From: Lytechinus pictus
Taxonomy: Eukaryota
Length of the DNA stretch: 64,000 nt
NCBI RefSeq assembly: GCF_037042905.1
Contig: NC_087245.1
Coordinates: forward strand, 18,602,001-18,666,000
Reading direction: 5' to 3'
In this document: positions 34,601 through 64,000 of the stretch, piece by piece
Numbering within the stretch: position 1 is the stretch's first letter
Layout: every line of letters starts with the position of its first letter
Position numbers and translations under genes: made by a program
Notes under the pieces: generated by a model
Seen by the model: the letters and a program-made list of their open reading frames with translations, nothing else
The model's database searches: none
Told to the model about the DNA's origin: nothing

Positions 34601-35787
34601 TATAATTTGGCAAATCAAATAATGCGAGCGCATAGTGCAAGCTGCAAGTTATATTCACACCATAAAACGGACATTTAACAGAGCACTTAAAAATCAGTTT
34701 GTAAATCAAACAAAATTATGAATAATGTCCGAGCTGAAATATGCTTTGTAAAATCGACTTCAAAACTTGACATTTTAAGCTACATATCAGCCTATTTAGC
34801 AAGATGTGTATCTCATCGAACAGGCTATGCGAGCCCGAAGCGCGAGCGAAAAAATTAATATAGTGACATGAAATATATTTTTTTATCATTTTCCAAGTCA
34901 TCCCCTGACCTTTTTTTTTTCACTCGTCTCCCTCTTATTTTAACTCTTATTTTTCCTCCTTTCTTTCCCCTTCTTTTTCTTTTTTCTTTCTTTCTCCCTT
35001 TTTTTCTTCATTTGTTTTGCTCTGCCGATAGGGGGGGGGGGGCGGGCCCCTCGCCCCCCTGGATCCGCCTATGGATGGAGCTCAATTTTACAGCTTTCCT
35101 ACGGCGTACGTTTGATTCCAAGATACTCGAGAATGCCTTGAGTACTTCTTACGTCAAACGTACGGCCGACGTATGACTCTGTGCACTCCCTTTGTCTATA
35201 TAGGGGGTAATTGTCCGGGGGGTAGTTGTCCGGGGGGTAATTGTCCGGGGGTAGTTGTCCGGGGGGTAATTGTCCGGGGGGTAGTTGTCCGGGGGGGTAA
35301 TTGTCCGGGGGGTAGTTGTCCGGGGGGTAGTTGTCCGGGGGGTAATTGTCCGGGGGGTAGTTGTCCGGGGGGTAATTGTCCAGGGGGTAGTTGTCCGGGG
35401 GGTAGTTGTCCGGGGGGTAATTGTCCGGGGGGTAGTTGTCCAGGGGGTAGTTGTCCGGGGGGTAATTGTCCGGGGGGTAGTTGTCCGGGGGGTAATTGTC
35501 CGCGGGGTAATTGTCCGGGGGGTATTTGTCCGGGGGGGTAATTGTCCGGGGGGTAGTTGTCCGGGGGGTAATTGTCCGGGGGGTAATTGTCCTCGGGGGG
35601 TAGTTGTCCTCAGGGGGTAATTGTCCGGGGGGTAATTGTCCGGGGGGTAATTGTCCTAGGGGGGTAATTGTCCGGGGGGTAGTTGTCCGGGGGGTGATTG
35701 TCCAGGGGGTAGTTGTCCTGATACCAATACAAATGTATAATATTACAGGATTTTTTCTAAGTGTAAACTTTTTTTTGATACGCACTG
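31627..35787. mobile_element. Tc1/mariner-type MITE interrupted by a foldback element
   Basis: TIR CAGTGCGTA.CAAAAAAAAGTTTACAC; TA TSD. Confidence 0.8.
32562..35725. mobile_element. Foldback/MULE-like element with 15-bp tandem-repeat inverted arms
   Basis: (CCCCCCGGACAAYTA)n at 32570-32950 and its reverse complement at 35203-35719; GG...CC termini; 9-bp TSD AATACAAAT (32553-32561, 35726-35734). Confidence 0.85.
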
Positions 35788-43230: not shown

Positions 43231-44000
43231 TAACGTCCATGCGCAGTGAGTCGCCATGTGCAATTTTTTTACTGTTGCGCCACTCACCTGTCACTGCCTG
43301 ACCAAAATGGTTCTAGAAATCATTTGCAATGTTGAAAAGTGTCTTGTGGCATCTGATATTAGGCCTAATCCTGGATAAAAGATCCAGCAAAAGAAAAAGG
43401 AGTTTAGCGCAGTCAAAGTCAGACTTGCAAACTTGGTCCGTACGGTGCGAATTTTAGCTGCCATTTTTCTCGGGCGACAATTTGAGAATCCCACACTAAG
43501 CAATTGATGTTTCCAAAGCTGCCCGCTCAAGTTATAAACATTTGGTATCAAAATATAGATTATAAAAAAATGCTCATGATCATTTCATTTTGAAAGTGGG
43601 GGTGACAATTGTTATCAAAATAAGAGGGGTGGCGTCTCAACGTATCTCAACCTACGGAGAGGTTTCAACAACGCAGCTGAGTCAATGCACTTTTGTTTAC
43701 GATCGGTGCGTGTGTGTGCACATGCGCGATATGTCTGTGAAGTAAATGTATTGGATGTTTCAAATCGGCGACTCAAAATTCACTCATCATTGTGTCGCCG
43801 TTCCGGAAGTGCGTAATTCATGACGTTCTTACTTAAAAATGCAACAATTTCAGGAGAACAGTTTTTCATATATTTGAAAGGATTTGTGGATACTTTCATC
43901 TTATACAAAGATTTGGGTAAGACTTTTAGTTTTTTTTGCAAAATTGAAGGTTGAAGACCGCCGATTATTGCTGATGGCGACTCACTGCGCATTGACGTTA
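43231..44000. promoter_or_regulatory. Candidate bidirectional promoter of La/SSB and a divergent transcript
   Basis: CpG-rich. ETS site CCGGAAGT at 43803. Plus-strand donor G|GTAAGA at 43917 and minus-strand donor CAG|GTGAGT at 43287. A 27-bp inverted motif lies at both edges. Confidence 0.55.
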
Positions 44001-45081
44001 GTCTTGACACTGGGTCTGAAGTTCTGAACCAGCCACACTCGATCGAGCTAGCTAGCTTGGTGGCAACTGGAAAATCTGCCCACGCTGCGTAATACAATAG
44101 GCTTGACCCTTGACTCGCTTCATTATGACTTAGCTACAGCAGAAGAGCTACATGTATGGTATGAGGCACCGTTTTGTAGCGCATTTTGTAGAAAAATTAT
44201 TATTCAACAAGTAATAATTATTAAAATGAAATCTATATTTTAGTTGTAAATAATTACTATTATATCAATAGTAATTATTTACAACTAAATTACTTGTATC
44301 TAGGAAAACAAACTAATTCAACTTTAAAATCTGCACAAACGGATACAGAACACGTAAGTTGCATTTTAAATGCACGCATACAAGCCTACATGGGACCCAT
44401 TTAGGGGTCACATCCAGCTAGATCCTTTTTAGGGGGGTCGGCACCTCTTTTTCGGGCAGATTTCAATAAAAATGGTATCAAAATGCTCTGATAGGAGATG
44501 ACACTGCATCAAATAACCGGATGCCCAAAGGAATTTGAAACATTTACCTTGTTTAACCCCTGTAAATCCTACCTCTACTATAATATAAAAAAATCATGAT
44601 GTGTATGATTTATGTGAGGGATTATACTCTATCATGATATACATTAGAGCATGTATACTTACCCATGTTGTCTTTTTGCACAAATGTAGACCATACTAAA
44701 TGCTGGTTAGTTCTTTTGTCTGTTTAATCCCTTTAGATTTTTTTTTTTAACTGCAAAGTCATTTTTGTCTACATTTACCACATACCAAATCGTTATTGTA
44801 ATACATAACTATTACCAATGGGTAATTCTACAAGTACTGGTAAGTCAAAATGGTAATTGTAAAATATCAATAAAATGTTATATGAAATTACATAAGTTTA
44901 CCGATGATACCAACACTCTTTGACAATTTGCTGGTGTTATCTTTTATTTTGATTGGACTGCCTTTTCTGTTAGTGAATGTCATATAACTCTCTAGAATAA
45001 ATTAATCTTTTCATTTTGTTCCCCTCTATACATTAGGAAATACCACATTGTTGTGTTTGCTGGTAGTCACCTATTGTCATA

Positions 45082-45195
45082 ATGGCAGAAACAGAAGTCA
45101 AAACTGAAGTCGAAATGGAAGTCAAAACCGAAGTCAAAACTGAAGGTGATGCACAGCCCACTGCATTGGAGAAAAAGATTGCAAGACAAATTGAG
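45082..45195 (+). CDS. SSB: La coding exon 1 (exon starts at 45037 after CATTAG)
   Basis: MAETEVKTE...ALEKKIARQIE|gtagga. Confidence 0.9.
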
Positions 45196-45447
45196 GTAGG
45201 AAAATAAATTTATTAACAAATGTCCCTAAATTTGTTTATCAAAAGCCAGACCTTAAATTTCAATATTTCTAGGCTAAGACCAAGACACATTTCTATATAA
45301 TATCATAACACAAATGGGCAAAATTAAAAGGGCACAAAAATGGCATCAAGGCCATTTTAGGCATCATCAAAATTGTTTACCACATTCATGTACTTCATAC
45401 TTACCCTTTTTATTTTTGTTTTATTATTGTTATTGTCATTTATACAG

Positions 45448-45517
45448 TACTACTTTGGAGACTCCAACCTAAAAAGAGATACATTCCTGCAGCTAAAGAT
45501 CAGAGAAGACAATGGAT
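45448..45517 (+). CDS. SSB: La coding exon 2 (La motif)
   Basis: YYFGDSNLKRDTFLQLKIREDNG(t)|gtatcctttt. Confidence 0.95.
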
Positions 45518-46083
45518 GTATCCTTTTACAAAAAAAAACACTGACTGATGATGTATATGTGCTTTATTAAAATACTTTGTAATTTAAGTTTTGATGAGTG
45601 TAGTGACTAAATAGTAGTTTGTAAAAAAAAATATGCTGGTGTTGGAAGGTTGACTTATTGTGGTAAAGAAGAAGAGAAGGAGGGAGGAGGAGAAAAAGAA
45701 GAAGAAGGAGGAGGAAGAGGGAGTGAATCTATTTGAAGTGCAATTATTAACTTTTAGAGTTACAATGTATGTAGTGGGGGCTTCTTGTTTTTTTCTTGAT
45801 GGCAATTACATTCTTTAAATGACATCCAGAACCTCTCTTTATATCCTGGAACTGCCCCTGATCTCAAATGATCAGGATGATGATTGTGATGATGATGATG
45901 ATGATGATGACGACGATGATGATGATGATGATGATGATTGTGATGTCTGTGGTGGTGATGAGGCATATATGATATAACATAATGATAACAACAATTAGGA
46001 TATCATCTGTTAACTTGGGCATTTTTATGTCCTTCTTACTAATGATATACATACGCATATAATCCTTGACTTAAAAACTAAAG
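45518..46083 (+). other. U12-type (minor spliceosome) GT-AG intron
   Basis: 5' site GTATCCTTT; branch point TCCTTGAC at 46063-46070, with the A 14 nt from the 3' end; no polypyrimidine tract. Confidence 0.9.
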
Positions 46084-46190
46084 GGGTCCCACTTGAAACC
46101 ATGATCAAGTTTAACAGACTGAAAATCTTGACATCAGACTTCGATGTCATTGTCCAAGCTCTTGAAAACTCTCCAACAGGTCTAATGGAG
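46084..46190 (+). CDS. SSB: La coding exon 3
   Basis: (W)[35 protein letters not shown]|gtgagt. Confidence 0.95.
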
Positions 46191-46434
46191 GTGAGTGCAA
46201 CATTCTAAATTACTCAAAAATATAGATTAAAAAAAAACAGTTTTCCAGGAACCTAATAATGTTATCATTGTGCCAAAATTACATTTTATATAGTTGAAAA
46301 TTCAAGTAAAAGCATGCTTACATATTATGCACCTATTTGTACAGTTACATATTCTCATTTGGTAGGAAATATATGAAATTATGTGCTAAAAACAAAAAAA
46401 TTAAATCTTCAGTATTAATCTGTCTGTATATCAA

Positions 46435-47130
46435 TTTTTGTTGTCGCTTTTCCGACAACAGCGGCAGAGGCACATGAAATTTTAACCAAAGGTTAAGTTT
46501 GTGAAATGACATAACTTAAAAATTATATAGACCTAGTACATGAAACTTGGACATAAGGTTAATCAAGTAATACTATACATCCTACCTGAGTTTCAGGTCA
46601 CATGACCAATGTCAAATGTCATTTAGGGTAAATTAACTTAATAAACTATGTTGGGGGAATCAACATCAAAATCTTAACCTAAGGTCTAAGGTTTTGTAAT
46701 GTCTTCATAACTTAGAAAGTATATGAACCTAGTGAATGAAACTTGGGACACAAGGGTAATAAAGTATTACTGAATTTCAGGTCACATGACCAAGGTCAAA
46801 GGTCATTTAGGGTTAATGAACTTTGGCCAAGTTGGGGGTATTTGTTGATTTGCCATCATAACTGAAAGTTTATGGATCTAGTTCATTAAACTTGGACATG
46901 TATCACTGAACATCCCGTACAGACATAGGGGTAATCAAGTTTCACTGGCAAGTCTTAGGTCACATGACCAAGGTCAAATGTCATTTAGGGTCAATGAACA
47001 TAGTATTATATCATTATATGAATGGTGTCTTTTGTGAATAATTATTCTATAATAGTTTTCAAAGTCAGCACTGTTGCTATATTGAATGCATAATACAGGT
47101 GTGACTGCTAGAGGCCCTCCACTTGTTTTT
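46435..47130 (+). mobile_element. HINE/DINE-like element, degenerate copy 1
   Basis: Shares the internal repeats (CATGAAACTTGG..GTCACATGACCAAGGTCAAAGGTCA) and the 3' end CCACTTGTTT with the copies at 49533, 51450 and 53057. Confidence 0.7.
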
Positions 47131-47354
47131 TCAAATTAGATGATTTGAACCTGTGTGCGAAGCCATATCATATCTTTAGATTGCAATCCACATTAGTTTT
47201 ACATCCAGTATGGTGAAAGATGATTTGTTGAAAGCAAACTTGTTATCAGATTCATTGATTTATTGAAAGAGAGTCCATACTGGTGACCAGTGAAATAAAT
47301 AACAAATTTAGTTTGCTTTGGTTTGTGAAATTGTCTTGACTTTTTTTCACATAG

Positions 47355-47456
47355 ATAAGTGAAGACAAATTGAAGATCAGAAGAGCAGTGAACAAGCCAC
47401 TACCTGAAGAAACCGCTGCATACTGGCAGTCTATGAGAGCAAGGAGTGTCTATTGC
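47355..47456 (+). CDS. SSB: La coding exon 4
   Basis: ISEDKLKIRRAVNKPLPEETAAYWQSMRARSVYC|gtatgt. Confidence 0.95.
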
Positions 47457-47679
47457 GTATGTCAATTCACATTCTAACAAGATTATCAGTGTAGTTATTC
47501 TATTTTATATTCTCCAAAGGATATCAGATCTTTTCATGATTGAAGTGCTATAAAAATATTATTAACACACAATCTTCAGCATCTTTTCCCATATCTGCAG
47601 TAATCCTGTATCTAAACCTTGTGATCCTTCCTTCAGTTCTACCTAAGATTATTATGAGATGCCTGTATGATCTCATTAA

Positions 47680-48447
47680 AGGGATGGTCTGGGCTGAAAA
47701 TATTTATATTTAAATAAATAGAGTAAAATTCACAGAGCAATATGCTGAAAATTTCATGAAAATAGGATTACAAATGTGTGTATTTGAGTTTTGTCAGACG
47801 TGTATCAATCAGATATGATTATTTACGTCTGGGACCGACCTTTAACGTCACCATCCGAAAGACGTGACCAGGGCTCGAACCTCGAACCTCTGCATCAATT
47901 TGTAACTTCCCCACAGCTTGGATTACAGGCGCACGCCACAACGCCCAATGATGAAGTTATATAATTTTAGATTGTATCAATATTTTTTTAAAACAGTTAT
48001 ATGCACTTCGTCATGAATATTCATTAGGTGGGCTGATGATGTCACATCCCCACTTTTCCTTATAACATAAGATCATAAATGTTTCATTTTTGTTGAATAC
48101 ATGTATAAATGATGTGTCTCCATTATGATGAAATAAGTTGTGGCAATAAATAACTAATGCATTTAATCAGTTGTCAATCCAATTTTTTTAGTTCTTGGTA
48201 GAAATTTTTTGAATAAACCTAATTTCATATAATAAAATCCAAAAAAACAAGTGGGGATATGACATCATCAGCCCACCTAATGAATATTCATAAGACATGC
48301 CTAGAACTGTTTCACTGGAATAATGCAAATCTTTAAAATTCAATAACTTCGTTATTTCTGATCAGATTTTGATCAAATTTTCAGCATTTTGCTTTGTGAA
48401 TTGTACTCTTTATTGAGATATATATATCTCCAGCCTGGACCATCCCT
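47680..48447. mobile_element. Kolobok-like MITE
   Basis: TTAA-associated ends AGGGATGGTC..GGCTG / CAGCC..GACCATCCCT; internal inverted repeats. Confidence 0.7.
47776..47946 (-). mobile_element. Candidate SINE with a 7SL (Alu-domain)-like head
   Basis: Minus strand begins GGGCGTTGTGGCGTGCGCCTGTAATCCAAGCT, followed by B-box GGTTCGAGCCC, a Meta-domain-like segment and a (CA)-type tail. It interrupts the host MITE. Confidence 0.7.
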
Positions 48448-48781
48448 TAAATACACTGTTCAGCAGCATTCATCCATGAGCATGATTTGACCAGTGTTTC
48501 CTTTACTGAATCCAATTCCGGATCTAAGTCACACTTGAAGTCCAACATCTCTAGAATTCTCCCATCCTCTTCCCTGGTAGATGCCTATGGAAAGCCAGGA
48601 GAAAGTGCATAGTGAATACTGTAATACCCTTTTGCTACTTACTCAAATTATACAGTCCAACTACTTTTTGTGCTTGTGGGAAGGAATATGTTGTTGGAAA
48701 GGGTTAGTTGTGTGAGCTGTCTGCATGAAAGCAAAATTTCTAATAATTTTAATGATCTTATATGATACTTTGACTTTACAG

Positions 48782-48889
48782 AAAGGATTTCCAATTGATG
48801 CTGATCTGGATATGATGCAAGAGTACATGGATCAGTTTGGAGAGTGTGTTCACATTCAACTCAGGAGAGATAAGGAAAAGAAATTCAAG
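48782..48889 (+). CDS. SSB: La coding exon 5 (RRM1)
   Basis: KGFPIDADLDMMQEYMDQFGECVHIQLRRDKEKKFK|gtcagt. Confidence 0.95.
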
Positions 48890-49532
48890 GTCAGTATCTC
48901 TCAATGACAAATGGCTTCAAGTGATTTGGTAAAGCATCAGCTCCATGACCCTACATGCTATAAACATATATATCCATTACCGATGTACAGTATATGGTAT
49001 TATAAAAAAAAGAAGCAATGAAAATTCAAAGTCAAAGGAATCATAATGTGCTTCGAATGGTGTAAAAATGAGAATATCACCGAGATTCCAGATGAATTTC
49101 CCTCATAGCATGCAATATGTGTACCAAAGAACCATTTCGTGAATGACACTATTCACTCGTAGATACCATGATGCCATCATTAATTTCTAATCCTTCATAT
49201 TCCTGGTTCTTTATCTGGCCAAATAAACATAGAACTGTAGTTATATGCTACAAACACAAGCATTTGATGAATTAACCATCAAAGCATTCAAAAAGTACCT
49301 CAAGGGGCAGTCACACGTTGCTGAATTAGATCGTGGCTGTTTGGCAATACACTTTGCTCTGCCAAAGATCATGATGATTCCATATTTTGACTCTGCTCAT
49401 CTGACCATCCTTAGCACATGAAGAATTCTCATTTGCTGGAATTTGACAAGCATATATTCTTTGATGGCTGAAGGTATGGCCACATGAACAACCAAGTAGC
49501 CCCATTGAAATCAGTGTAAAATTGTCAGTTAA

Positions 49533-50486
49533 TTTTTGTCTCACCTGCATAGCAGAGTGAGACTATAGGCGCCGCTTTTCCGACGGCGGCGGCGGCGTCA
49601 ACACCAAATCTTAACCTGAGGTTAAGTTTTTGAAATGACAGCATAACTTAGAAAGTATATGGACCTAGTTCATGAAACTTGGCCATAAGGTTAATCAAGT
49701 ATTACTGAACATCCTGCCTGAGTTTCATGTCACATGACCAAGGTCAAAGGTCATTTAGGGTCAATGAACTTAGACCATGTTGGGGGAATCAACATCAAAA
49801 TCTTAACCTAAGGTTAAGTTTTTGAAATGTCATCATAACTTAGAAAATATATGGACCTAGTTCATGAAACTTATACATAAGGTTAATCAAGTATCACTGA
49901 ACATCCTGCATGAGTTTCACGTCACATGACCAAGGTCAAAGGTCATTTAGGGTCAATGAACTTTGGCCGAATTGGGGGTATCTGTTGAATTACCATCATA
50001 ACTTTGAAAGTTTATGGATCTGATTCATGAAACTTGGACATAATAGTAATCAAGTATTACTGAACATCCTGTGCAAGTTTCAGGTCACATGATCAAGGTC
50101 AAAGGTCATTTAGGGTCAATGAACTTTGGCCAAATTGGGGTATTTGTTGAATTACAGCCATAAATTTGAAAGTGTGTTGGTCTAGTTCATAAAACTTGGA
50201 CATAAGAGTAATCAAGTATCACTGAACATCCTGTGCGAGTTTCAGGTCACATGATCAAGGTCAAAGGTCATGTAAGGTCAAAGAACTTTGGCCACGTTGG
50301 GGGTATTTGTTGAATTGCCATCATATCTCTATAAGTGTATTGGTCTAGTTCATAAAACGTGGAAATACGAGTAACCAAGTATCACTGAACATCTTGTGCG
50401 AGTTATAGTAGTTTTCAAAATCAGCACCGCTGCTATATTGAATCGCGTGATGCAGGTGAGACGGCCAGAGGCATTCCACTTGTTTT
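49533..50486 (+). mobile_element. HINE/DINE-like element, full copy 2
   Basis: T-run flanks; subTIRs GTCTCACCTGCAT / ATGCAGGTGAGAC; (GGC)n; ~150-190-bp internal repeats. Confidence 0.8.
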
Positions 50487-50700
50487 GGTACCAGGCCAAT
50501 ATACACTTATTTTAATATCGCTACTAGTATTCATCTCGGGGGATGTTGTGAACATATTCTACACAAAGTTTATGCTATAATTGTTTGTCATCATGCTCTT
50601 TTGAGAAATGGTATCCAAAACTCTCAAATGCAAAAATTAAAAGTATTATTGTGACATTGCTTCAGTATTGTATCATGTTTGTTTTATGTTGTATTGACAG

Positions 50701-50801
50701 GGTTCCATCTTTGCTGTGTATGACACTATTGATTCCGTCAAGAGGTTCCTAGAAGCAGAAGACTTGAAGATTGGTGATCAGGACGTAGTCAAGATGAAAA
50801 A
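50701..50801 (+). CDS. SSB: La coding exon 6 (RRM1)
   Basis: GSIFAVYDTIDSVKRFLEAEDLKIGDQDVVKMK(aa)|gtaatg. Confidence 0.95.
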
Positions 50802-51287
50802 GTAATGTAGTCCAGTAAAAAAAAATTGAAATATTTTAGTTGTGTGCAAGGGATTTGTTAATCATATCTATGATGCATACATGTACAATAGATTTGGAGT
50901 CTTCTTGTTGATGCCATACTGTATTTTCATTCCTTAATTGTTTTCAGAAGCATTGCCTTGATTATCTATACAGGTTTAACTTTGTCTACTATAACCAAAC
51001 ATATATGTAAGTTGAATATTCAAACAAGTCAAAGAAAAAAGTACAATTTTTTTATTCTCCACACACTTACATGCAGTTATTGTTTGTGTTTTTTTATATT
51101 TGTATGTCTATTAATCGCCCAAAGTGGCAGAGTCTACCATTGTTTCAGAATCTGATCTTTGTTTGTCTTCGTGAATACAGGTGTTACTTGAAATGTCATT
51201 AAAAGCTGGAATTTATTCAGGTTATTAGCCAATGCATTTTCTCTAACTCCTGTTGATATTTAATTATTGATTCTGTTTTCTTTTGAG

Positions 51288-51359
51288 GGATGATTACATC
51301 AAAATGAAGGCTGATGAGAAGAAATCAAGAAAGGAGGATGAAAAGAAGAAGAAATTAGA
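51288..51359 (+). CDS. SSB: La coding exon 7
   Basis: (K)DDYIKMKADEKKSRKEDEKKKKL(ga)|gtgagt; the acceptor is TTTTGAG. Confidence 0.9.
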
Positions 51360-51449
51360 GTGAGTGACTATCACTAAACATATATTAAAATAGTAATATT
51401 AAAATAAAAATCAAGAGACTTACTATATGTCCTTGCTGGCATGTTTACA

Positions 51450-52293
51450 TTTTTGTCTCGCCTGCATAGCAGAGCGAGACTATAGGCGCCGCTTTTCCGA
51501 CGGCGGCAGCGGCGTCAACATCAAATCTTAACCTAAGGTTAAGTTTTTGAAATGACATAATAACTTAGAAAGTATATGGACTTAGTTCATGAAACTTGGA
51601 CATAAAGTTAATCAAGTATTACTGAACATCCTGCCTGAGTTTCAGGTCACATGACTAAGGTCAAAGGTCATTTAGGGTCAATGAACTTAGACCATGTTGG
51701 GAGAATTTATTTTCAAAATCTTAACCGAAGGTTTAGTTTTTGAAATGACATCACAACTTAAAAAGTATATGGACCTAGTTCATGAAACTTGGGCATAAGG
51801 TTAATCAAGTATTAGTGAACATCCTGCACCATTTTCAGGTCACAGGTCATTTAGGGTCAATGAACTTTGGTCAAGTTGGGGGTATTTTTTGAATTACTAT
51901 CATAACTTTGAAAATTTATGGATCTAGTTCATGAAACTTAGACATAAGGTTAATCAAGTATTAGTAAACATCCTTCCTGAGTTTCAGGTCACATGACCAA
52001 GGTCAAAGGTCATTTAGGGTCAATGAACTTTGGCCAAGTTGGGGGTATTTGTTGAATTACCTTCATAACTTTGAAAATTTATGGATCTAGTTCATGAAAC
52101 GTGGACATGGGTGTAGTTGACAAGTCTTAAGTCACCGTTCAAATGTCATCTATGGTCAATGAACGTGGTATTATGTCATTATATGAATGGTGTTTTTGTG
52201 AATGATTATTTTATAGTAGTTTTCAAAGTTAGCACTGCTGCTATATTAAATCGCGTAATGCAGGCGAGACTGCCAGAGGCTTTCCACTTGTTT
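51450..52293 (+). mobile_element. HINE/DINE-like element, full copy 3
   Basis: subTIRs GTCTCGCCTGCAT / ATGCAGGCGAGAC; same internal repeats as copy 2. Confidence 0.8.
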
Positions 52294-52349
52294 AATGGCC
52301 TTGTGCCTTTATCTTAAGTAAAAATCTGTCTGTTGTAAAGGGTGCTCAG

Positions 52350-53606
52350 CAGAGCTGCCAAATAGTACGATTTTGTCGTATTCCGTACGATTTTTCACTT
52401 AAAATACGACACTAGGATTCTTACAAATAAAATACGATTTTTTGAAAATATAGCTATGGTAAGGCTCGACATAACAGAAATCCACCTCGGGCAATCATTA
52501 TTGAAAAATGTTAAGTTTTGGTGGCCCGAATCGGGCAACCAATAATTTTCAAAGTAGCGCAATTTTTCTCCCGATTTTGCACCATTTATCAACTTTATAC
52601 AGTTCAAATTGCAACCAATTCGTCATGCGCCCTTTTTGTTGATCTACACACAAATACACACACACATGACAGTACATAGGCTTACCGCTCTAGCTAGCAT
52701 ACAGTAGCTATTATCCAGCCGGCCGGCTGGCGTGCGTGAGCTTTGCATGAAACCACTGCAGCTACATGTAGCTATCTGTGCGCTATCAGCCTATTCAGAC
52801 TCGGGGAGCTACGATACGAAATGTTGCTGCTAAGATATCTTCCACAGAACTTTGAAAATCTATTTGCAAGCATTAAAAACAGGAATTATGACCTCTCTTT
52901 TGACTCAAAAAGACCGATTTCCAAATGTATTAATACACATAAAAACACATAGGTGAGTACATCACAGTCCCATATGTGCATTTGTATGTATGTTGATACT
53001 TGGTTTCTTTCGAAGCTGTGTCTTTTCTAGCAAAAAATAAGCAGACAGTTTTTTCCTTTTTGTCTCACCTGCATAGCAGAGTGAGACTATAGGCGCCGCT
53101 TTTCCGACGGCGGCGGCGGCGGCGGCGTCAACACCAAATCTTAACCTGAGGTTAAGTTTTTGAAATGACAGCATAACTTAGAAAGTATATGGACCTAGTT
53201 CATGAAACTTGGCCATAAGGTTAATCAAGTATTACTGAACATCCTGCCTGAGTTTCATGTCACATGACTAAGGTCAAAGGTCATTTAGGGTCAATGAACT
53301 TAGACCATGTTGGGGGAATCAACATCAAAATCTTAACCTAAGGTTAAGTTTTTGAAATGTCATCATAACTTAGAAAATATATGGACCTAGTTCATGAAAC
53401 TTATACATAAGGTTAATCAAGTATCACTGAACATCCTGCATGAGTTTCACGTCACATGACCAAGGTCAAATTACAGTGAGCACAACAAAATAATGAGATG
53501 TATAGTAGGAAAGTACACGACGGGTATGAATAGGATTTTTTGTCTAAAAATAGGATTTTTTGGGTGAAATAATAGGTTTTTTTGTCAAGTGTGGTTGGCA
53601 GCTCTG
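52350..53606. mobile_element. hAT-like composite element with a 6-bp TSD carrying fragments of two other elements
   Basis: Perfect TIR CAGAGCTGCCAA; TSD GCTCAG (52344-52349, 53607-53612). The interior holds an inverted copy of ~25380-26070 and a truncated HINE (53057-53470). Confidence 0.8.
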
Positions 53607-53945
53607 GCTCAGGAATGTGCTGCTCACTTTTGATTTTTTTTGCTATTGTTTGAATGGTCTTTGGTATTATTTGCTTTACTGGTTTTTAATTCTAATCATT
53701 TCATTTTCTTCATGTTATACATAAAATGGATTGTAGCTATGCCTAATGTTTGTTGTTGTCATTGATTACTCCTTGAGTAGATTTTTCGTTTTAAAAAAAT
53801 TGTCTTTTCCCTTTCTAAAAACGGCATTTGTTGTGTGCTAAATTCAGTTATGGAATTCGGAAAAAAGTATGTAAGTGGCAAAAAGATTTTGATGTTAATA
53901 TTATCACATCAATTCATTTCAATAATGTCTTTATTTTTCCAACAG

Positions 53946-53988
53946 GCAAAAAGAACAGAAGGAAAAGGACCAAGTAGAAGCAATACAG
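53946..53988 (+). CDS. SSB: La coding exon 8
   Basis: (E)QKEQKEKDQVEAIQ|gtaaga; phases fit both neighbours. Confidence 0.9.
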
Positions 53989-54081
53989 GTAAGAATCCTC
54001 CAATATTCAGCCACAGTAACACACTAGTTACATGAAAATGGAATGAACAAATAAATGTAACGTCCTTAATGTTATTGATAT

Positions 54082-54193
54082 TCTCCTGAAGACGACAAGA
54101 ACACACTTGTCGAATCGTCGAGATTGGGTGGTCCTTTTCAGAACCAACACTTGCCCAAGAAAGATATATGGTCTACCGTGAAACCTACTACAC
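54082..54193 (+). mobile_element. Penelope-like solo repeat starting with a minimal hammerhead-ribozyme motif
   Basis: TCTC-CTGAAGA-C-GACAAG-AACACA-CTTGTC-GAAt-C-GTC-GAGA (54082-54123); 12-bp TSD TGTTATTGATAT (54070-54081, 54194-54205). Confidence 0.7.
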
Positions 54194-54580
54194 TGTTATT
54201 GATATCATTCTTCATTTTACATTATGTGTAAAAACGAGTAGAGTGTTATTTATTACACATTTAATAGAAAATGAGAAAACAAAATGCCTTGAAGCAGTAA
54301 GATTGTATCAAGTTGTAGTACATGTATGTACGTGATGACACCTTTTAGTGTGATTTTGAAATGTGATAGATTTATATTCTTTCTATATTGGAGTTAATGA
54401 TCAGAGAGCTCACAGGTAGCCACTACTCACTATTATTTTGTCTCATTTCACAGTAAATGAAGAAAAAAATGAGCAAACGGACAGGATTGTTGCAAGATAT
54501 GAATTGAAGTTCAATTGATCTTGACCACCCATTCACATGTGTCGAAGATACAGTACATGTCACAGAAAACCATCCTTTTA

Positions 54581-57500
54581 TTCACTTCAGTGGTGTACTA
54601 ACGATCAGGGATCGATAGAAGGATAGCATGTCATGTTAATTCTTTCTCATCTCATTTTAGAGTGAGTTTGATGATTAGAAGTCTTCACTTCAGTGGTGTT
54701 ATAACAAACAGGCATCAAAAAAAGGGTAGCATGTCATGTTAATTCTTTCTCATCTCATTTTAGAGTGAGTTTGATGATTATAAGTCTTCACTTCAGTGGT
54801 GTTATAACAAACAGGCATCAAAAGAAGGGTAGCATGTCATGTTTAATTCTTTCTCATCTCATTTTAGAGTGAGTTTGATGATTAGAAGTCTTCACTTCAG
54901 TGGTGTTATAACAAACAGGCATCAAAAAAAGGGTAGCATGTCATGTTAATTCTTTCTCATCTCATTTTAGAGTGAGTTTGATGATTAGAAGTCTTCACTT
55001 CAGTGGTGTTATAACAAACAGGCATCAAAAGAAGGGTAGCATGTCATGTTTAATTCTTTCTCATCCCATTTTAGAGTGAGTTTGATGACTATGAGAAGGG
55101 TTGTGTTCTTCACTACAGTGGTGTAATAATGATCAGGGATCGAGAGAATGATAGCATGTCATGTTTAATTCTTTCTCATCCCATTTTAGAGTGAGTTTGA
55201 TGACTATGAGAAGGGTTGTGTTCTTCACTACAGTGGTGTAATAACGATCAGGGATCAAGAGAAGGGTAGCATGTCATGTTTAATTCTTTCTCATCTCATT
55301 TTAGAGTGAGTTTGATGATTAGAAGTCTTCACTTCAGTGGTGTACTAACGATCAGGGATCAAGAGAAGGATAGCATGTCATGTTTAATTCTTTCTCTTCC
55401 CATTTTAGAGTGAGTTTGATGATTAGAAGTCTTCACTTCAGTGGTGTACTAACGATCAGGGATCAAGAGAAGGATAGCATGTCATGTTTAATTCTTTCTC
55501 TTCCCATTTTAGAGTGAGTTTGATGATTAGAAGTCTTCACTTCAGTGGTGTACTAACGATCAGGGATCAAGAGAAGGATAGCATGTCATGTTTAATTCTT
55601 TGATGTCCCATTTTAGAGTGAGTTTGATGACTATGAGAAGGGTTGTGTTCTTCACTTGAGTGGTGTAATAACGATCAGGGATCAAGAGAAGGATAGCATG
55701 TCATGTTTAATTCTTTGATGTCCCATTTTAGAGTGAGTTTGATGACTATGAGAAGGGTTGTGTTCTTCACTTCAGTGGTGTACTAACGATCAGGGATCGA
55801 GAGAATGATAGCATGTCATGTTTAATTCTTTGATGTCCCATTTTAGAGTGAGTTTGATGACTATGAGAAGGGTTGTGTTCTTCACTACAGTGGTGTAATA
55901 ACGATCAGGGATCGAGAGAATGATAGCATGTCATGTTTAATTCTTTGATGTCCCATTTTAGAGTGAGTTTGATGACTATGAGAAGGGTTGTGTTCTTCAC
56001 TACAGTGGTGTAATAATGATCAGGGATCGAGAGAATGATAGCATGTCATGTTTAATTCTTTGATGTCCCATTTTAGAGTGAGTTTGATGACTATGAGAAG
56101 GGTTGTGTTCTTCACTTCAGTGGTGTAATAACGATCAGGGATCAAGAGAAGGATAGCATGTCATGTTTAATTCTTTGATGTCCCATTTTAGAGTGAGTTT
56201 GATGACTATGAGAAGGGTTGTGTTCTTCACTTCAGTGGTGTACTAACGATCAGGGATCGAGAGAAGGATAGCATGTCATGTTTAATTCTTTGATGTCCCA
56301 TTTTAGAGTGAGTTTGATGACTATGAGAAGGGTTGTGTTCTTCACTACAGTGGTGTAATAATGATCAGGGATCGAGAGAAGGATAGCATGTCATGTTTAA
56401 TTCTTTCTCATCCCATTTTAGAGTGAGTTTGATGACTATGAGAAGGGTTGTGTTCTTCACTTCAGTGGTGTAATAACGATCAGGGATCAAGAGAAGGATA
56501 GCATGTCATGTTTAATTCTTTCTCATCCCATTTTAGAGTGAGTTTGATGACTATGAGAAGGGTTGTGTTCTTCACTACAGTGGTGTAATAACGATCAGGG
56601 ATCAAGAGAAGGATAGCATGTCATGTTTAATTCTTTGATGTCCCATTTTAGAGTGAGTTTGATGACTATGAGAAGGGTTGTGTTCTTCACTACAGTGGTG
56701 TAATAACGATCAGGGATCAAGAGAAGGATAGCATGTCATGTTTAATTCTTTGATGTCCCATTTTAGAGTGAGTTTGATGACTATGAGAAGGGTTGTGTTC
56801 TTCACTTCAGTGGTGTACTAACGATCAGGGATCGAGAGAAGGATAGCATGTCATGTTTAATTCTTTGATGTCCCATTTTAGAGTGAGTTTGATGACTATG
56901 AGAAGGGTTGTGTTCTTCACTTCAGTGGTGTACTAACGATCAGGGATCGAGAGAATGATAGCATGTCATGTTTAATTCTTTGATGTCCCATTTTAGAGTG
57001 AGTTTGATGACTATGAGAAGGGTTGTGTTCTTCACTACAGTGGTGTAATAACGATCAGGGATCAAGAGAAGGATAGCATGTCATGTTTAATTCTTTGATG
57101 TCCCATTTTAGAGTGAGTTTGATGACTATGAGAAGGGTTGTGTTCTTCACTACAGTGGTGTAATAACGATCAGGGATCAAGAGAAGGATAGCATGTCATG
57201 TTTAATTCTTTGATGTCCCATTTTAGAGTGAGTTTGATGACTATGAGAAGGGTTGTGTTCTTCACTTCAGTGGTGTACTAACGATCAGGGATCGAGAGAA
57301 TGATAGCATGTCATGTTTAATTCTTTCTCATCCCATTTTAGAGTGAGTTTGATGACTATGAGAAGGGTTGTGTTCTTCACTACAGTGGTGTAATAACGAT
57401 CAGGGATCGAGAGAATGATAGCATGTCATGTTTAATTCTTTGATGTCCCATTTTAGAGTGAGTTTGATGACTATGAGAAGGGTTGTGTTCTTCACTACAG

Positions 57501-60500
57501 TGGTGTAATAATGATCAGGGATCGAGAGAAGGATAGCATGTCATGTTTAATTCTTTCTCATCCCATTTTAGAGTGAGTTTGATGACTATGAGAAGGGTTG
57601 TGTTCTTCACTACAGTGGTGTAATAACGATCAGGGATCAAGAGAAGGATAGCATGTCATGTTTAATTCTTTGATGTCCCATTTTAGAGTGAGTTTGATGA
57701 CTATGAGAAGGGTTGTGTTCTTCACTTCAGTGGTGTACTAACGATCAGGGATCGAGAGAAGGATAGCATGTCATGTTTAATTCTTTGATGTCCCATTTTA
57801 GAGTGAGTTTGATGACTATGAGAAGGGTTGTGTTCTTCACTACAGTGGTGTAATAACGATCAGGCATCAAGAGAAGGATAGCATGTCATGTTTAATTCTT
57901 TGATGTCCCATTTTAGAGTGAGTTTGATGACTATGAGAAGGGTTGTGTTCTTCACTACAGTGGTGTAATAACGATCAGGCATCAAGAGAAGGATAGCATG
58001 TCATGTTTAATTCTTTGATGTCCCATTTTAGAGTGAGTTTGATGACTATGAGAAGGGTTGTGTTCTTCACTTCAGTGGTGTACTAACGATCAGGGATCGA
58101 GAGAAGGATAGCATGTCATGTTTAATTCTTTGATGTCCCATTTTAGAGTGAGTTTGATGACTATGAGAAGGGTTATATTCTACACTACAGTGGTGTAATA
58201 ATGATCAGGGATCGAGAGAAGGATAGCATGTCATGTTTAATTCTTTGATGTCCCATTTTAGAGTGAGTTTGATGACTATGAGAAGGGTTGTGTTCTTCAC
58301 TACAGTGGTGTAATAATGATCAGGGATCGAGAGAAGGATAGCATGTCATGTTTAATTCTTTCTCATCCCATTTTAGAGTGAGTTTGATGACTATGAGAAG
58401 GGTTATATTCTACACTTCAGTGGTGTAATAATGATCAGGGATCGAGAGAAGGATAGCATGTCATGTTTAATTCTTTGATGTCCCATTTTAGAGTGAGTTT
58501 GATGACTATGAGAAGGGTTGTGTTCTTCACTTCAGTGGTGTAATAACGATCAGGGATCAAGAGAAGGATAGCATGTCATGTTTAATTCTTTCTCATCCCA
58601 TTTTAGAGTGAGTTTGATGACTATGAGAAGGGTTATATTCTACACTTCAGTGGTGTAATAATGATCAGGGATCGAGAGAAGGATAGCATGTCATGTTTAA
58701 TTCTTTGATGTCCCATTTTAGAGTGAGTTTGATGACTATGAGAAGGGTTGTGTTCTTCACTACAGTGGTGTAATAATGATCAGGGATCGAGAGAAGGATA
58801 GCATGTCATGTTTAATTCTTTGATGTCCCATTTTAGAGTGAGTTTGATGACTATGAGAAGGGTTGTGTTCTTCACTACAGTGGTGTAATAATGATCAGGG
58901 ATCGAGAGAAGGATAGCATGTCATGTTTAATTCTTTCTCATCCCATTTTAGAGTGAGTTTGATGACTATGAGAAGGGTTGTGTTCTTCACTTCAGTGGTG
59001 TAATAACGATCAGGGATCAAGAGAAGGATAGCATGTCATGTTTAATTCTTTGATGTCCCATTTTAGAGTGAGTTTGATGACTATGAGAAGGGTTGTGTTC
59101 TTCACTACAGTGGTGTAATAATGATCAGGGATCGAGAGAAGGATAGCATGTCATGTTTAATTCTTTGATGTCCCATTTTAGAGTGAGTTTGATGACTATG
59201 AGAAGGGTTGTGTTCTTCACTACAGTGGTGTAATAACGATCAGGGATCAAGAGAAGGATAGCATGTCATGTTTAATTCTTTCTCATCCCATTTTAGAGTG
59301 AGTTTGATGACTATGAGAAGGGTTATATTCTACACTTCAGTGGTGTAATAATGATCAGGGATCGAGAGAAGGATAGCATGTCATGTTTAATTCTTTGATG
59401 TCCCATTTTAGAGTGAGTTTGATGACTATGAGAAGGGTTGTGTTCTTCACTTCAGTGGTGTAATAACGATCAGGGATCAAGAGAAGGATAGCATGTCATG
59501 TTTAATTCTTTCTCATCCCATTTTAGAGTGAGTTTGATGACTATGAGAAGGGTTATATTCTACACTTCAGTGGTGTAATAATGATCAGGGATCGAGAGAA
59601 GGATAGCATGTCATGTTTAATTCTTTGATGTCCCATTTTAGAGTGAGTTTGATGACTATGAGAAGGGTTGTGTTCTTCACTACAGTGGTGTAATAATGAT
59701 CAGGGATCGAGAGAAGGATAGCATGTCATGTTTAATTCTTTGATGTCCCATTTTAGAGTGAGTTTGATGACTATGAGAAGGGTTGTGTTCTTCACTACAG
59801 TGGTGTAATAATGATCAGGGATCGAGAGAAGGATAGCATGTCATGTTTAATTCTTTCTCATCCCATTTTAGAGTGAGTTTGATGACTATGAGAAGGGTTG
59901 TGTTCTTCACTTCAGTGGTGTAATAACGATCAGGGATCAAGAGAAGGATAGCATGTCATGTTTAATTCTTTGATGTCCCATTTTAGAGTGAGTTTGATGA
60001 CTATGAGAAGGGTTGTGTTCTTCACTACAGTGGTGTAATAATGATCAGGGATCGAGAGAAGGATAGCATGTCATGTTTAATTCTTTGATGTCCCATTTTA
60101 GAGTGAGTTTGATGACTATGAGAAGGGTTGTGTTCTTCACTACAGTGGTGTAATAACGATCAGGGATCAAGAGAAGGATAGCATGTCATGTTTAATTCTT
60201 TGATGTCCCATTTTAGAGTGAGTTTGATGACTATGAGAAGGGTTGTGTTCTTCACTACAGTGGTGTAATAACGATCAGGGATCGAGAGAAGGATAGCATG
60301 TCATGTTTAATTCTTTGATGTCCCATTTTAGAGTGAGTTTGATGACTATGAGAAGGGTTGTGTTCTTCACTACAGTGGTGTAATAATGATCAGGGATCGA
60401 GAGAAGGATAGCATGTCATGTTTAATTCTTTGATGTCCCATTTTAGAGTGAGTTTGATGACTATGAGAAGGGTTGTGTTCTTCACTACAGTGGTGTAATA

Positions 60501-61186
60501 ATGATCAGGGATCGAGAGAAGGATAGCATGTCATGTTTAATTCTTTGATGTCCCATTTTAGAGTGAGTTTGATGACTATGAGAAGGGTTGTGTTCTTCAC
60601 TACAGTGGTGTAATAATGATCAGGGATCGAGAGAAGGATAGCATGTCATGTTTAATTCTTTCTCATCCCATTTTAGAGTGAGTTTGATGACTATGAGAAG
60701 GGTTGTGTTCTTCACTTCAGTGGTGTAATAACGATCAGGGATCAAGAGAAGGATAGCATGTCATGTTTAATTCTTTGATGTCCCATTTTAGAGTGAGTTT
60801 GATGACTATGAGAAGGGTTGTGTTCTTCACTACAGTGGTGTAATAATGATCAGGGATCGAGAGAAGGATAGCATGTCATGTTTAATTCTTTCTCATCCCA
60901 TTTTAGAGTGAGTTTGATGACTATGAGAAGGGTTGTGTTCTTCACTACAGTGGTGTAATAATGATCAGGGATCGAGAGAATGATAGCATGTCATGTTTAA
61001 TTCTTTGATGTCCCATTTTAGAGTGAGTTTGATGACTATGAGAAGGGTTGTGTTCTTCACTACAGTGGTGAAATAACGATCAGGGATCGAAAGAATGATA
61101 GCATGTCATGTTTAATTCTTTCTCATCCCATTTTAGAGTGAGTTTGATGACTATGAGAAGGGTTGTGTTCTTCACTTCAGTGGTGT
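54581..61186 (+). repeat. Tandem array (115-bp unit, with 103/104-bp variants at the 5' edge) made from the La intron-exon 9 junction
   Basis: Each unit is pyrimidine tract-TTTTAG|AGTGAGTTTGATGACTATGAGAAGGGTTGTGTTCTTCACT(A/T)CAGTGGTGT... There are 58 acceptor copies from 54660 to 61136; the last opens the real exon. Confidence 0.97.
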
Positions 61187-61277
61187 CAATGATCAAACAT
61201 CTCGGGAGGATCTCAAGGAACTCTTCAGTGATCATGGCACCATCCAATGGGTTGACTATGAGAGAGGACAGTCTGAG
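61137..61277 (+). CDS. SSB: La coding exon 9 (RRM2)
   Basis: [47 protein letters not shown]|gtaaga. Confidence 0.95.
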
Positions 61278-61323
61278 GTAAGAAGAAGTCGTGTATCACT
61301 TCTTGTATCACATGTGACCCATA

Positions 61324-61638
61324 GGCCTGTATTCCGAAGTCAGGTGTAACTTAGACTCTGGTCTAAAGCCGTGGTTTAACTATAGATAGCCAATATTGAC
61401 ATAAGTAATAAATCTCTTACATTAGAGGATCAACGAATCAGCTCATGTGACTCAAATCATTCTGAACTGTCTTGGAAGGATGAAGAAGATACTTTGTCTT
61501 CACTATTAAAGAATCAGAAAAGAGCAAAGTGAATATAAGCATACAATGCAAACAAAATTTTTACATGTTTGGCTTCCCATAATTATGTCACAGGGTTAGA
61601 CCATGGTCTTAGTTAAACCAGACTTCAGAATCTGGGCC
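61324..61638. mobile_element. Harbinger-like MITE
   Basis: Imperfect TIR GGCC...ATTC.GAAGTC.GGT.TAAC; 3-bp TSD ATA. Confidence 0.65.
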
Positions 61639-62367
61639 ATAGAGTCTACCATACAGACATCAAACTTGTATTTAGAAGTTTGAATTGCAAAAGTTGAAGA
61701 AAATAAGACCATTCCATGCTTTATTGGCTATTTATTACCAATATGTCATTACATTGAATATATTTGAATTTTTGAAAGTATTTTTTCAAGTGTCTGTTTA
61801 TTGAAATTCAACTGCTGCAAGATAAATTGCTGTTGTGATTGACCTTTAGTCCCTGTAATACAAAGGGAGATAAAAGAAATGGCTAGGTTACATAATGCGA
61901 GGTAATGAGAACTTGTTGATTGAAGCCATAGTTCAGCTTTGAAAGAAAGGTTCGGGGATAGACCTTTGGAAAAGGCTTTCTAGATGATCTAATTACTAAG
62001 TATGGTGGAGAGGGTAATGAGTCTTTAAAAAGAATGGTCCAAGAGCATGATAGTCAACGTGACACTTTATTTTAATAGTACAGTGATTGGGACAGGTCGG
62101 TACCCATCATGAAATTGACAGATCACTATTCACAGCTGACAATTAATAGGATCTTTTAGGGGAAAGTGACACGAAATAGGATTTTCCTCTCGAGATAGGA
62201 TTTTTAAACTTGTAAAAAGTAAGATTTTTGGTTGTTTCTCAAAATCGTAGACAAAATTAGGGCTTTAGGCTTGAAAATGGGTTAAAAAGAAATCAAGAAT
62301 AGTTATTTTTTTCACAATAAATGTTGGCAGTTCTCACTATTGATGAATATACTTCCTGTATGTCTAG

Positions 62368-62557
62368 GGAACAATCCGCTTCAGTGAGGATACCAAAGCA
62401 CAGGAAACGCTGGATAAGGCCAAAGCTGCCAAAGAGGGCGCTCTCCAAGTCCGAGGCTGTGAGATCACATTCCGTGTACTTGAAGGAGAAGAGGAGGAGC
62501 AGCACTGGATGAAGGTGTTTGAGGATAAATCAAGGGCTAGGCTAAAGAAACAACAAG
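62368..62557 (+). CDS. SSB: La coding exon 10 (RRM2)
   Basis: GTIRFSEDTKAQETLDKAK...ITFRVLEGEEEEQHWMKVFEDKSRARLKKQQ(g)|gtaatg. Confidence 0.95.
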
Positions 62558-63005
62558 GTAATGATCTGTGTTCATGAAAAAGCAAATATGGGACAATAGA
62601 TCTTTGAAGCCTTTATTCACCTCCAGAACAGCAACCACAGTAATAATGATTGGAAAATATGATGTTAATTTCATTCTATGTGAGGGATCAAACTGATAAC
62701 CAAGCTCTGCATGCTTGGTTAACATTTAGAACACCATTGCTGGCCAAATAGCATCTGATAAACTGACTCGATTTATTTCTTGCGATAGAATTGCAATCTA
62801 ATTCCCTCAATAATGCCAAAAGTACAACATAGTTTCATGATCAGAAAAATGAAATAAAAGCTTGGGCTATTTTAATCCTGACATGGCTCACAGAATTTAT
62901 ATAGCTGGTAATAATTTTCAAAGTAACGATTCCATGTTTAAATCAGGGATTTTTTTTTGCAATTGACTATATATCATTGGGGGTTTTCTCTTATATTGTT
63001 TTCAG

Positions 63006-63155
63006 GGAGGAGAGGTAAAAAGCAGAAGTGGTTTGAGAAGCGAGATAACCGACGAGGAGGAGATCGAGGACATCGGGATAGGGGAGATCAACAACAGATG
63101 GGCAAGAAGACAAAGTTTGAAAGTGACGATGAGGAGGGAAATGGAAATTCAGAAG
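63006..63155 (+). CDS. SSB: La coding exon 11 (basic/RG-rich region)
   Basis: (G)RRGKKQKWFEKRDNRRGGDRG...GKKTKFESDDEEGNGNSE(g)|gtttgt. Confidence 0.9.
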
Positions 63156-63778
63156 GTTTGTTTATCATGATTTGATCATAAAGGGGTATTTTTTCTTCAA
63201 AAATGTTGCTGATAATTAAAAAAATATTTTTAAACATCAAGTTCAAGTTAATATACAGGGCTCCATTCTTACAGTCTTTGCTTTTCTTGGGGCAATTCTA
63301 ATCTTTATGCATGTTTGTGCATTGTTTACTCTTGAGTTTTATGGAAAAGAAATTAATTGATATTCGTTTGTTTGTTTTTTCATTTGCTGTTTTAGAAAAT
63401 TATGTGTTTACATTAACTTCAATTTATTCACTATACCATAACATATTTGAGAACACGGTAGTGATTTCAGAATTTAATAGTAGATGTTCACACTATAAAG
63501 AAGGGCGTATGCACCATGGAGTGGGGCCTTAGATAAAAAAAAACAACTAAGTATTTGAATTGATTTAATTTTCATTAGAAATCATGTGCGATAGTGTCAC
63601 TAAGTTCTTTCTTCCTTCTGCATTATTTACTATTGTTTCATTCTTTTCATCCTTCCTCTCCTATCTAGTATGTTTAAGTACTTCCTTTTTACTCAATATT
63701 TTTTTAACCTTTTCATTACCACAATTACTAAATCCTTTCCTCATCAATTTGTTTTTCTCATCCACCTCTTCACTCCAG

Positions 63779-63888
63779 ATGTCAAACCTGAGCAGGATGT
63801 TAAACCTGAGCAGGGTGTCAAGCGACCGGCCGACGATGGAGATGCTGGTCAACCCTCGCCCAAGAAGGAGAAAACAGAAGACTCTTAA
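63779..63888 (+). CDS. SSB: La coding exon 12 (NLS and stop)
   Basis: (D)VKPEQDVKPEQGVKRPADDGDAGQPSPKKEKTEDS*. Confidence 0.9.
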
Positions 63889-64000
63889 CCTTCTGCAGTC
63901 TAAGTTGTTCAATCTTGCTGGACTTAAGTTAAATGGACAGTCCTGTGCTGCCATTTTTCAAAGACTCTTTAATCTTGTTTGGAATAGAGACACTCTTGGA

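Follow-up and report, generated by a model that had tools for sequence, protein, structure and literature searches.

Minisatellites whose units span an intron–exon boundary have been described in amphioxus as 'mirage' minisatellites, in the genes for Adh3, troponin C, PGBD5, and the globins BflGb6 and BflGb9 (PMC3087553; PMC3902484). Many units keep their splice signals while regular splicing is undisturbed (PMC3087553), the units evolve in concert with the exception of the array edges, and both length polymorphism and somatic instability have been shown (PMC3087553; PMC3902484). The array in BflGb6 is on the acceptor side: its units of 150–160 bp consist of an intron's 3' end plus a 5' segment of exon 2, and two haplotypes carry 3 and 6 units (PMC3087553; PMC3902484). 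Here, we describe an acceptor-side array in the La gene of the sea urchin Lytechinus pictus, where 57 decoy 3' splice sites precede the authentic one of coding exon 9. The analysis covers a stretch of 64,000 nt (assembly GCF_037042905.1, contig NC_087245.1, positions 18,602,001 to 18,666,000 of the forward strand), which we call the window and which is numbered from its first letter.

On the donor side, boundary minisatellites are known from human genes (PMC1557585). In F7, the boundary between exon 7 and intron 7 is occupied by the first unit of a 37-bp variable number tandem repeat, which provides 4–8 identical silent 5' pseudo-sites. Further cases are IFI6 (6-16), CBS, LMNB2, and PDGF; IFI6 has 25 pseudo-sites, and the two nearest ones are used in IFI6 and CBS. 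The same source recalls older globin constructs with a duplicated donor or acceptor, in which the proximal copy alone was used, and another group with opposite results (PMC1557585). Among the papers listed by our literature searches, none describes an echinoderm case, the terms 'mirage' and 'sea urchin' not having been searched together.

Structure of the array

The 115-bp tandem array in intron 8 of the La gene (Table 1) spans positions 54578–61186 (6609 nt, 57.5 units), its start having been set by aligning the 5' flank to a double unit. The call made by Tandem Repeats Finder is 54992–61186, with a period of 115, 54.2 copies, 95% matches, and 0% indels. Each unit corresponds to the final 65 nt of intron 8 and the initial 50 nt of exon 9. 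The likeness to the real exon 9 stops at +50, which is position 61186. Homology of the unit to exon 9 past this point was ruled out, the local alignment score of 14 being reached by 349 of 1000 shuffles. Only past the last copy does the sequence continue into the other 91 nt of exon 9 and on to the donor GAG/GTAAGA at 61278.

A 20-nt motif that covers the acceptor and the exon start occurs 58 times in the window, namely in 57 decoys and at the real site, 61137. The first ten exon-like starts (54661–55617) are spaced by 103, 104, or 115 nt, and the distance from 55617 to the real exon start is exactly 48 × 115 nt. Among the 57 units, 50 have a length of 115 nt (19 distinct sequences), five of 104 nt, and two of 103 nt. 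The seven shorter units carry a deletion of 11–12 nt, and six of them read SEFDD followed by a stop (TAG at codon 6). An earlier sequence-only reading of the window had placed a peptide with a variable F/Y residue in the unit. This describes the 115-nt units well, as the codon for that residue is TAC in 31, TTC in 18, and TTG in one of the 50, and it does not apply to the units of 103–104 nt. The rest of that reading's structural account agrees with what repeat finding, alignment, and protein comparison returned: a 115-bp unit with pyrimidine tract, TTTTAG, and the first ~50 nt of exon 9; ten early acceptors followed by 48 × 115 bp; 57 decoys ahead of the real exon; La as the gene; and the rest of RRM2 with a GTAAGA donor behind the last copy alone.

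TTTTAG is present in every decoy. Over the 58 sites, the pyrimidine tract has the form of the real site in 15, a weaker GATGT variant in 36, and other forms in seven. The match to the real site extends at least 38 nt upstream in 14 of the 57 decoys, and four decoys (56422, 58952, 59872, and 60677) match it letter for letter between −40 and +50. This indicates that local signals cannot separate the sites.

Over the range −65 to +50, seven of the ten 5'-most decoys differ from the real site at 33–63 positions, while the other 50 differ at 3–11. The array also contains long exact internal duplications, one of 952 nt with a shift of 8 units (58330–59281 is identical to 59250–60201) and 519-nt ones displaced by 7 and by 15 units. 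Taken together, these duplications and the diverged 5' edge are the usual signature of unequal exchange, with the edge outside homogenization. The array is subject to concerted evolution in its interior, from which its edge is excluded.

A donor-like AGA/GTGAGT is found in each unit at +2, one base past the acceptor. It agrees with 7 of 9 consensus positions, which equals the count for the real exon 9 donor. As its distance from the previous acceptor is 116 nt, pseudo-exons of 116 nt formally exist. Neither this motif nor the existing name for repeats of this kind figured in the sequence-only reading. Intron 8 also has 11 TACTAAC motifs beside the 57 complete signals of tract and AG.

Joining exon 8 to any of the 57 decoys leads to a stop in the exon 8 frame (at codon 34 in 35 decoys, codon 40 in 15, codon 6 in six, and codon 23 in one), as had been predicted for a distance of ~40 codons. 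Read through the array, none of the six frames stays open beyond 55 aa, and the unit length of 115 is not divisible by 3. A coding tandem repeat or exon duplication was ruled out, the frames being closed and the units having no RNA depth in the data sets X15 and X16 introduced below.

Uniqueness of the unit and a second array in the same genome

The genome of L. pictus (812 Mb in 368 contigs) was searched with two units. At least 26 matches were obtained, and all 26 are within the window at 54578–61195; match counts in the own genome are lower bounds, and these matches came from a single first-look candidate. The unit is of local origin and not a dispersed repeat. When 30-nt probes for the two sides of nine La exons were compared with the 4 kb to their left and right, 5 mismatches being allowed, 17 of the 18 probes matched only themselves, and the exon 9 acceptor was the sole one with nearby echoes. 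Rfam gave 0 matches at gathering scores for the region 44000–64000.

A second array of the same style was encountered on another contig. The Pfam profile PF00348 matches the L. pictus genome 52 times, and about 40 of these matches are stacked at C6:12079923–12086533 on the same profile positions, 168–234. An intron of FDPS carries an array there (C6:12079924–12086491) with 35.6 copies of 186 bp and 95% matches. Each FDPS unit has a pyrimidine tract, TTTAG, and an exon start, and the last copy alone continues to a GTAAAT donor.

Assignment to the La gene

The 47 residues encoded by 61137–61277 are 100% identical to an L. pictus protein named lupus La protein-like (430 aa). In comparison with other La proteins, their identity is 87–89% for Strongylocentrotus and Diadema and 70% for Patiria. 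The 430-aa protein aligns exon by exon to the window from 45082 to 63885 (tblastn), and exon 9 alone matches the start of the RRM_3/xRRM domain (PF08777, E 3.8e-12). The junction peptide is kept in the named La proteins of Strongylocentrotus, Diadema, and Patiria, which indicates that the exon is ancestral and the array derived. Annotated La proteins of two Lytechinus species show a single exon 8–9 junction.

Use of the acceptors in RNA

Acceptor use was analyzed in three raw ribosomal RNA-depleted RNA runs of one study (X15, X16, and X17), which were assigned by species label and of which about 6% each was read, and in a set of Logan contigs (X1) whose kind, 'RNA', is a guess. No indexed sequencing run was recorded as RNA. 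None of the runs is from a sample in which nonsense-mediated mRNA decay (NMD) was blocked. The RNA was aligned to 60950–63200, a region with two decoy acceptors, the real acceptor, and exons 9–11. A likeness of 90% was chosen so that reads from any unit of the array could land on this region. Because the alignment was restricted to it, the donor side of exon 8 appears as a loose end and not as a joint.

Reads which start at 61137 and carry the exon 8 loose end number 30 in X15 (agreement 0.99) and 30 in X16 (0.95). In consensus, the loose end equals the final 30 letters of exon 8, and there is no extra base between exons 8 and 9. Junction RNA-seq, which the sequence-only reading had put forward as a check, thus connects exon 8 to the real exon start in both runs. 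As positive controls, the joint 61277 to 62368 is covered by 54, 68, and 15 reads in X15, X16, and X17, and the exon 10–11 joint by 28, 39, and 17 reads; the depth on exon 9 is 63, 81, and 27, respectively.

On the decoy part of the aligned region (60950–61101), the depth is 0 in X15 and 0 in X16, at steady state and with NMD unblocked. A transcript that joined a randomly chosen decoy would retain, on average, about 28 units, all of them piling up on 60950–61101, so that a depth of 0 sets a bound on decoy use. We infer that steady-state decoy use in X15 and X16 is well under 1%. Array reads were not filtered out, given that 10 reads of X17 fit two places. Regular splicing is kept in X15 and X16, where the authentic site alone was seen in use. 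Rare decoy use followed by decay could have escaped notice in these samples, which were not NMD-blocked.

A probable tolerated junction minisatellite

In our judgment, the La array is probably a tolerated junction minisatellite of the mirage kind, the decoys of which are skipped because an acceptor commits together with its exon, and which has no dedicated function. A 115-bp piece (65 nt of intron 8 and 50 nt of exon 9) would have been duplicated in tandem, and the duplicated unit would then have been amplified and partly homogenized by unequal exchange or slippage, with the array expanding upstream in the intron until it had about 57 copies. In its entirety, it would be transcribed as intron and then removed. 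With the 3' splice site committed jointly with its exon, the 57 decoys would stay unused, the last copy being the one that has the rest of exon 9 and a strong donor 141 nt downstream. That the last of 58 sites wins argues against a first-come or 5'-to-3' scanning mode and for commitment via the downstream exon.

The locus is thereby a natural experiment on 3' splice-site choice, with 58 acceptors in a row and four decoys that are letter-identical to the real site over 91 nt. The sequence-only reading had seen in it a natural test of this sort, and this part of its interpretation is borne out by decoys that are exact or near-exact copies and by an mRNA that uses the last site. La is an essential, well-expressed gene of a laboratory animal with injectable embryos. 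In annotation, arrays of this kind are a pitfall for gene-prediction programs and for assemblers.

Several observations weigh against this explanation. Each acceptor is followed at 116 nt by AGA/GTGAGT, and simple exon definition alone cannot explain why the resulting 116-nt pseudo-exons are ignored. Decoy-specific sequence is present in X1, in which two contigs have the array-consensus T at position 61071 (196 of a word depth of 196) and the summed word depth is 204–234 on the decoy part versus 390–442 on exon 9, with none on unique intron 9. This signal could be due to pre-mRNA multiplied by the copy number, to DNA carry-over, or to some decoy use. The depth on the decoy part in X17 is 1–2, with three reads that have the array-consensus T at 61071. 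X16 has one read in unique intron 9 and none in the array, a pattern hard to square with 57 copies in the intron, unless removal of intron 8 is faster or the animal in question has fewer copies. The copy number itself is that of the assembly. The loose-end evidence concerns those loose ends that were listed, and 122 further ones could hide a few reads from decoy acceptors. All raw runs are small samples from the same study, with NMD unblocked.

A wider version of the explanation is that junction-anchored minisatellites are not drawn at random from the intronic repeats but are the product of a mutational process linked to splice junctions, acting genome-wide in the urchin and perhaps in deuterostome invertebrates generally. 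We regard this as unlikely. If it were true, the La array would be the largest known product of that process. As a by-product, the array would show in vivo that an acceptor context identical over 91 nt (−40 to +50) does not suffice to commit a 3' splice site, not even in 57 repetitions and with a donor-like GTGAGT located 116 nt downstream.

Alternative explanations

It is quite improbable that the array is an artefact in which the assembler inflated a real allele of one or a few units. An exact internal duplication of 952 nt might arise in this way, X16 has no array reads despite its one read in intron 9, and the array length is taken from the assembly. Against this, the 50 full units comprise 19 distinct variants in a patterned, non-trivial order, and the 5' edge is diverged. 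The assembly has 368 contigs for 812 Mb, and 6.6 kb should be short for long reads. Two independent samples, X1 and X17, contain decoy-specific sequence. The roughly 10 array reads of X17 on 236 nt compare with about one read on 1090 nt of unique intron, which would roughly correspond to tens of copies, albeit with very small numbers. The FDPS array, finally, has the same style on another contig.

The sequence-only reading had also proposed a copy-number-tunable control of La dosage or isoforms. Some transcripts would join decoys and yield either proteins with La motif and RRM1 or NMD targets, and the copy number would tune their share. Such a device would be served by the early stop after all 57 decoys and by the four decoys which equal the real site from −40 to +50; the array sequence in X1 reaches about half the word depth of the exon, and NMD could conceal decoy products. 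We nevertheless consider this control very improbable. Any decoy-spliced RNA would carry many units, but the decoy-specific depth in X15 and X16 is 0 beside 30 and 30 real junction reads, and the annotated La of two Lytechinus species has a single junction. Like arrays are found in FDPS and in amphioxus genes without an effect on splicing (PMC3087553), which indicates a mutational process rather than a La-specific device. As to a poison acceptor or NMD-coupled dosage switch, there was no measurable use of alternative acceptors in the two raw runs X15 and X16, which were not NMD-blocked. The array does not appear to regulate La.

Scarcely credible is a role of the array as a sink for the splicing machinery (U2AF/U2) or as a timer, whereby unjoined decoys would delay removal of intron 8 and pace La output: the 57 complete tract and AG signals with 11 TACTAAC motifs in one intron, and array RNA without unique intron 9 RNA in X1, would be in keeping with it, but direct evidence is lacking, retained array RNA is absent from X15 and X16, and the array class also occurs in an unrelated gene (FDPS).

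Coordinates and further observations

Table 1. Features of the La locus in the window (a slash marks the splice position)
Feature	Position	Strand	Evidence
La coding exon 8, 44 nt, ends QKEQKEKDQVEAIQ; donor CAG/GTAAGA at 53989	53945..53988	+	tblastn, splice sites, RNA loose end
Intron 8, 7148 nt, 92% array	53989..61136	+	
Older section at the 5' side of the array: a partial unit followed by ten acceptors; unit lengths 103, 104, or 115 nt	54578..55616	+	sequence
48 units of 115 nt: pyrimidine tract, TTTTAG, 50 nt of exon 9, AGA/GTGAGT at +2	55617..61136	+	
Internal 952-nt duplication, shift of 8 units; higher-order structure of the array	58330..60201	+	unit-type string
Authentic exon 9 (141 nt), where RRM_3/xRRM begins; nt 1–50 of it make up the exon portion of the unit	61137..61277	+	protein match, RNA
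La exon 10	62368..62559	+	tblastn, RNA joints
La exon 11	63005..63155	+	tblastn, RNA joints
Last coding exon of La (12), includes the stop codon	63778..63888	+	tblastn

Other parts of the La gene contain repeats or variants of their own. Exon 1 has a 12-nt coding repeat (45089–45145, 4.8 copies) that gives rise to a TEVK-rich N-terminus, MAETEVKTEVEMEVKTEVKTE. The last coding exon starts with an 18-nt tandem repeat (63778–63821, 2.4 copies), which encodes DVKPEQ twice and whose units end in CAG. Two named La isoforms of Lytechinus variegatus (435 and 429 aa) differ by the six residues DVKPEL at this repeat, a difference that would be consistent with in-frame acceptors in tandem at a distance of 18 nt. 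Of these two acceptors, the RNA reads analyzed here use the first. Exon 11 is left by RNA reads at two points. For the first, 63135, there are 22 reads of X15, and for the second, 63155, there are 28 reads of X16 as well as sequence of X1. The named L. pictus La is devoid of the residues GNGNSE which the window encodes at the end of this exon (63135–63155). The two ends reflect either an indel allele or an alternative donor.

In intron 9, the stretch 61330–61640 has heavy RNA coverage on both strands with many mismatches (word depth in X1 up to 18918) and is probably a dispersed element that is expressed from elsewhere. Three tandem repeats in La introns (49598–49963, 50003–50404, and 51737–52108) have periods of 192, 162, and 149 nt with similar consensus words; they appear to be copies of a single dispersed element that is internally repeated. 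Elsewhere in the window, two 15-nt arrays (32569–32949 with 24.7 copies and 35203–35718 with 33.9 copies) are mutual reverse complements on either side of a segment of about 2.25 kb whose G+C content is higher (0.44), and might represent a mobile element's inverted ends.

Comparison with known systems

Recursive splice sites (ratchet points) consist of an acceptor which is almost at once followed by a donor-like motif within a long intron, the donor being regenerated at AG/GT. The La unit resembles them in having an acceptor almost directly followed by a donor-like motif inside a long intron. It differs in that AG/A/GTGAGT would leave one extra base, and none is present in the observed junction. 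Recursive or stepwise splicing via the decoys was ruled out on account of the donor-like GT at +2 and the clean junction reads.

The FDPS array, known here from its DNA, has the same architecture as the La array and resides in the same genome, while the gene and the unit sequence are unrelated.

The human arrays of the F7 type share several properties with the La array: the terminal unit lies on the boundary, the intronic sites are identical, the copy adjoining the body of the exon is used, and pseudo-sites that are functional in principle stay silent. The human cases are donor-sided with 4 to 25 pseudo-sites, whereas the La array is acceptor-sided and has 57 decoys. The 5'-to-3' scanning model considered for F7 would favor the first site met, whereas La uses the last of 58. 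IFI6 and CBS make use of their two nearest pseudo-sites; no La decoy was seen in use.

The La array is of the same kind as the amphioxus mirage minisatellites, with which it has in common tandem units that span a boundary, splice signals that are kept, regular splicing, and edges outside concerted evolution. The differences are the phylum and the size, 57 decoys in the echinoderm La gene as compared to 3–6 units in BflGb6, and the location in the gene for a housekeeping RNA-binding protein. Mirage minisatellites are thus extended from amphioxus to echinoderms, with a record copy number. The La array belongs to a described class and is, in relation to the sources as cited, notable mainly for its 57 copies, compared to 25 in IFI6.

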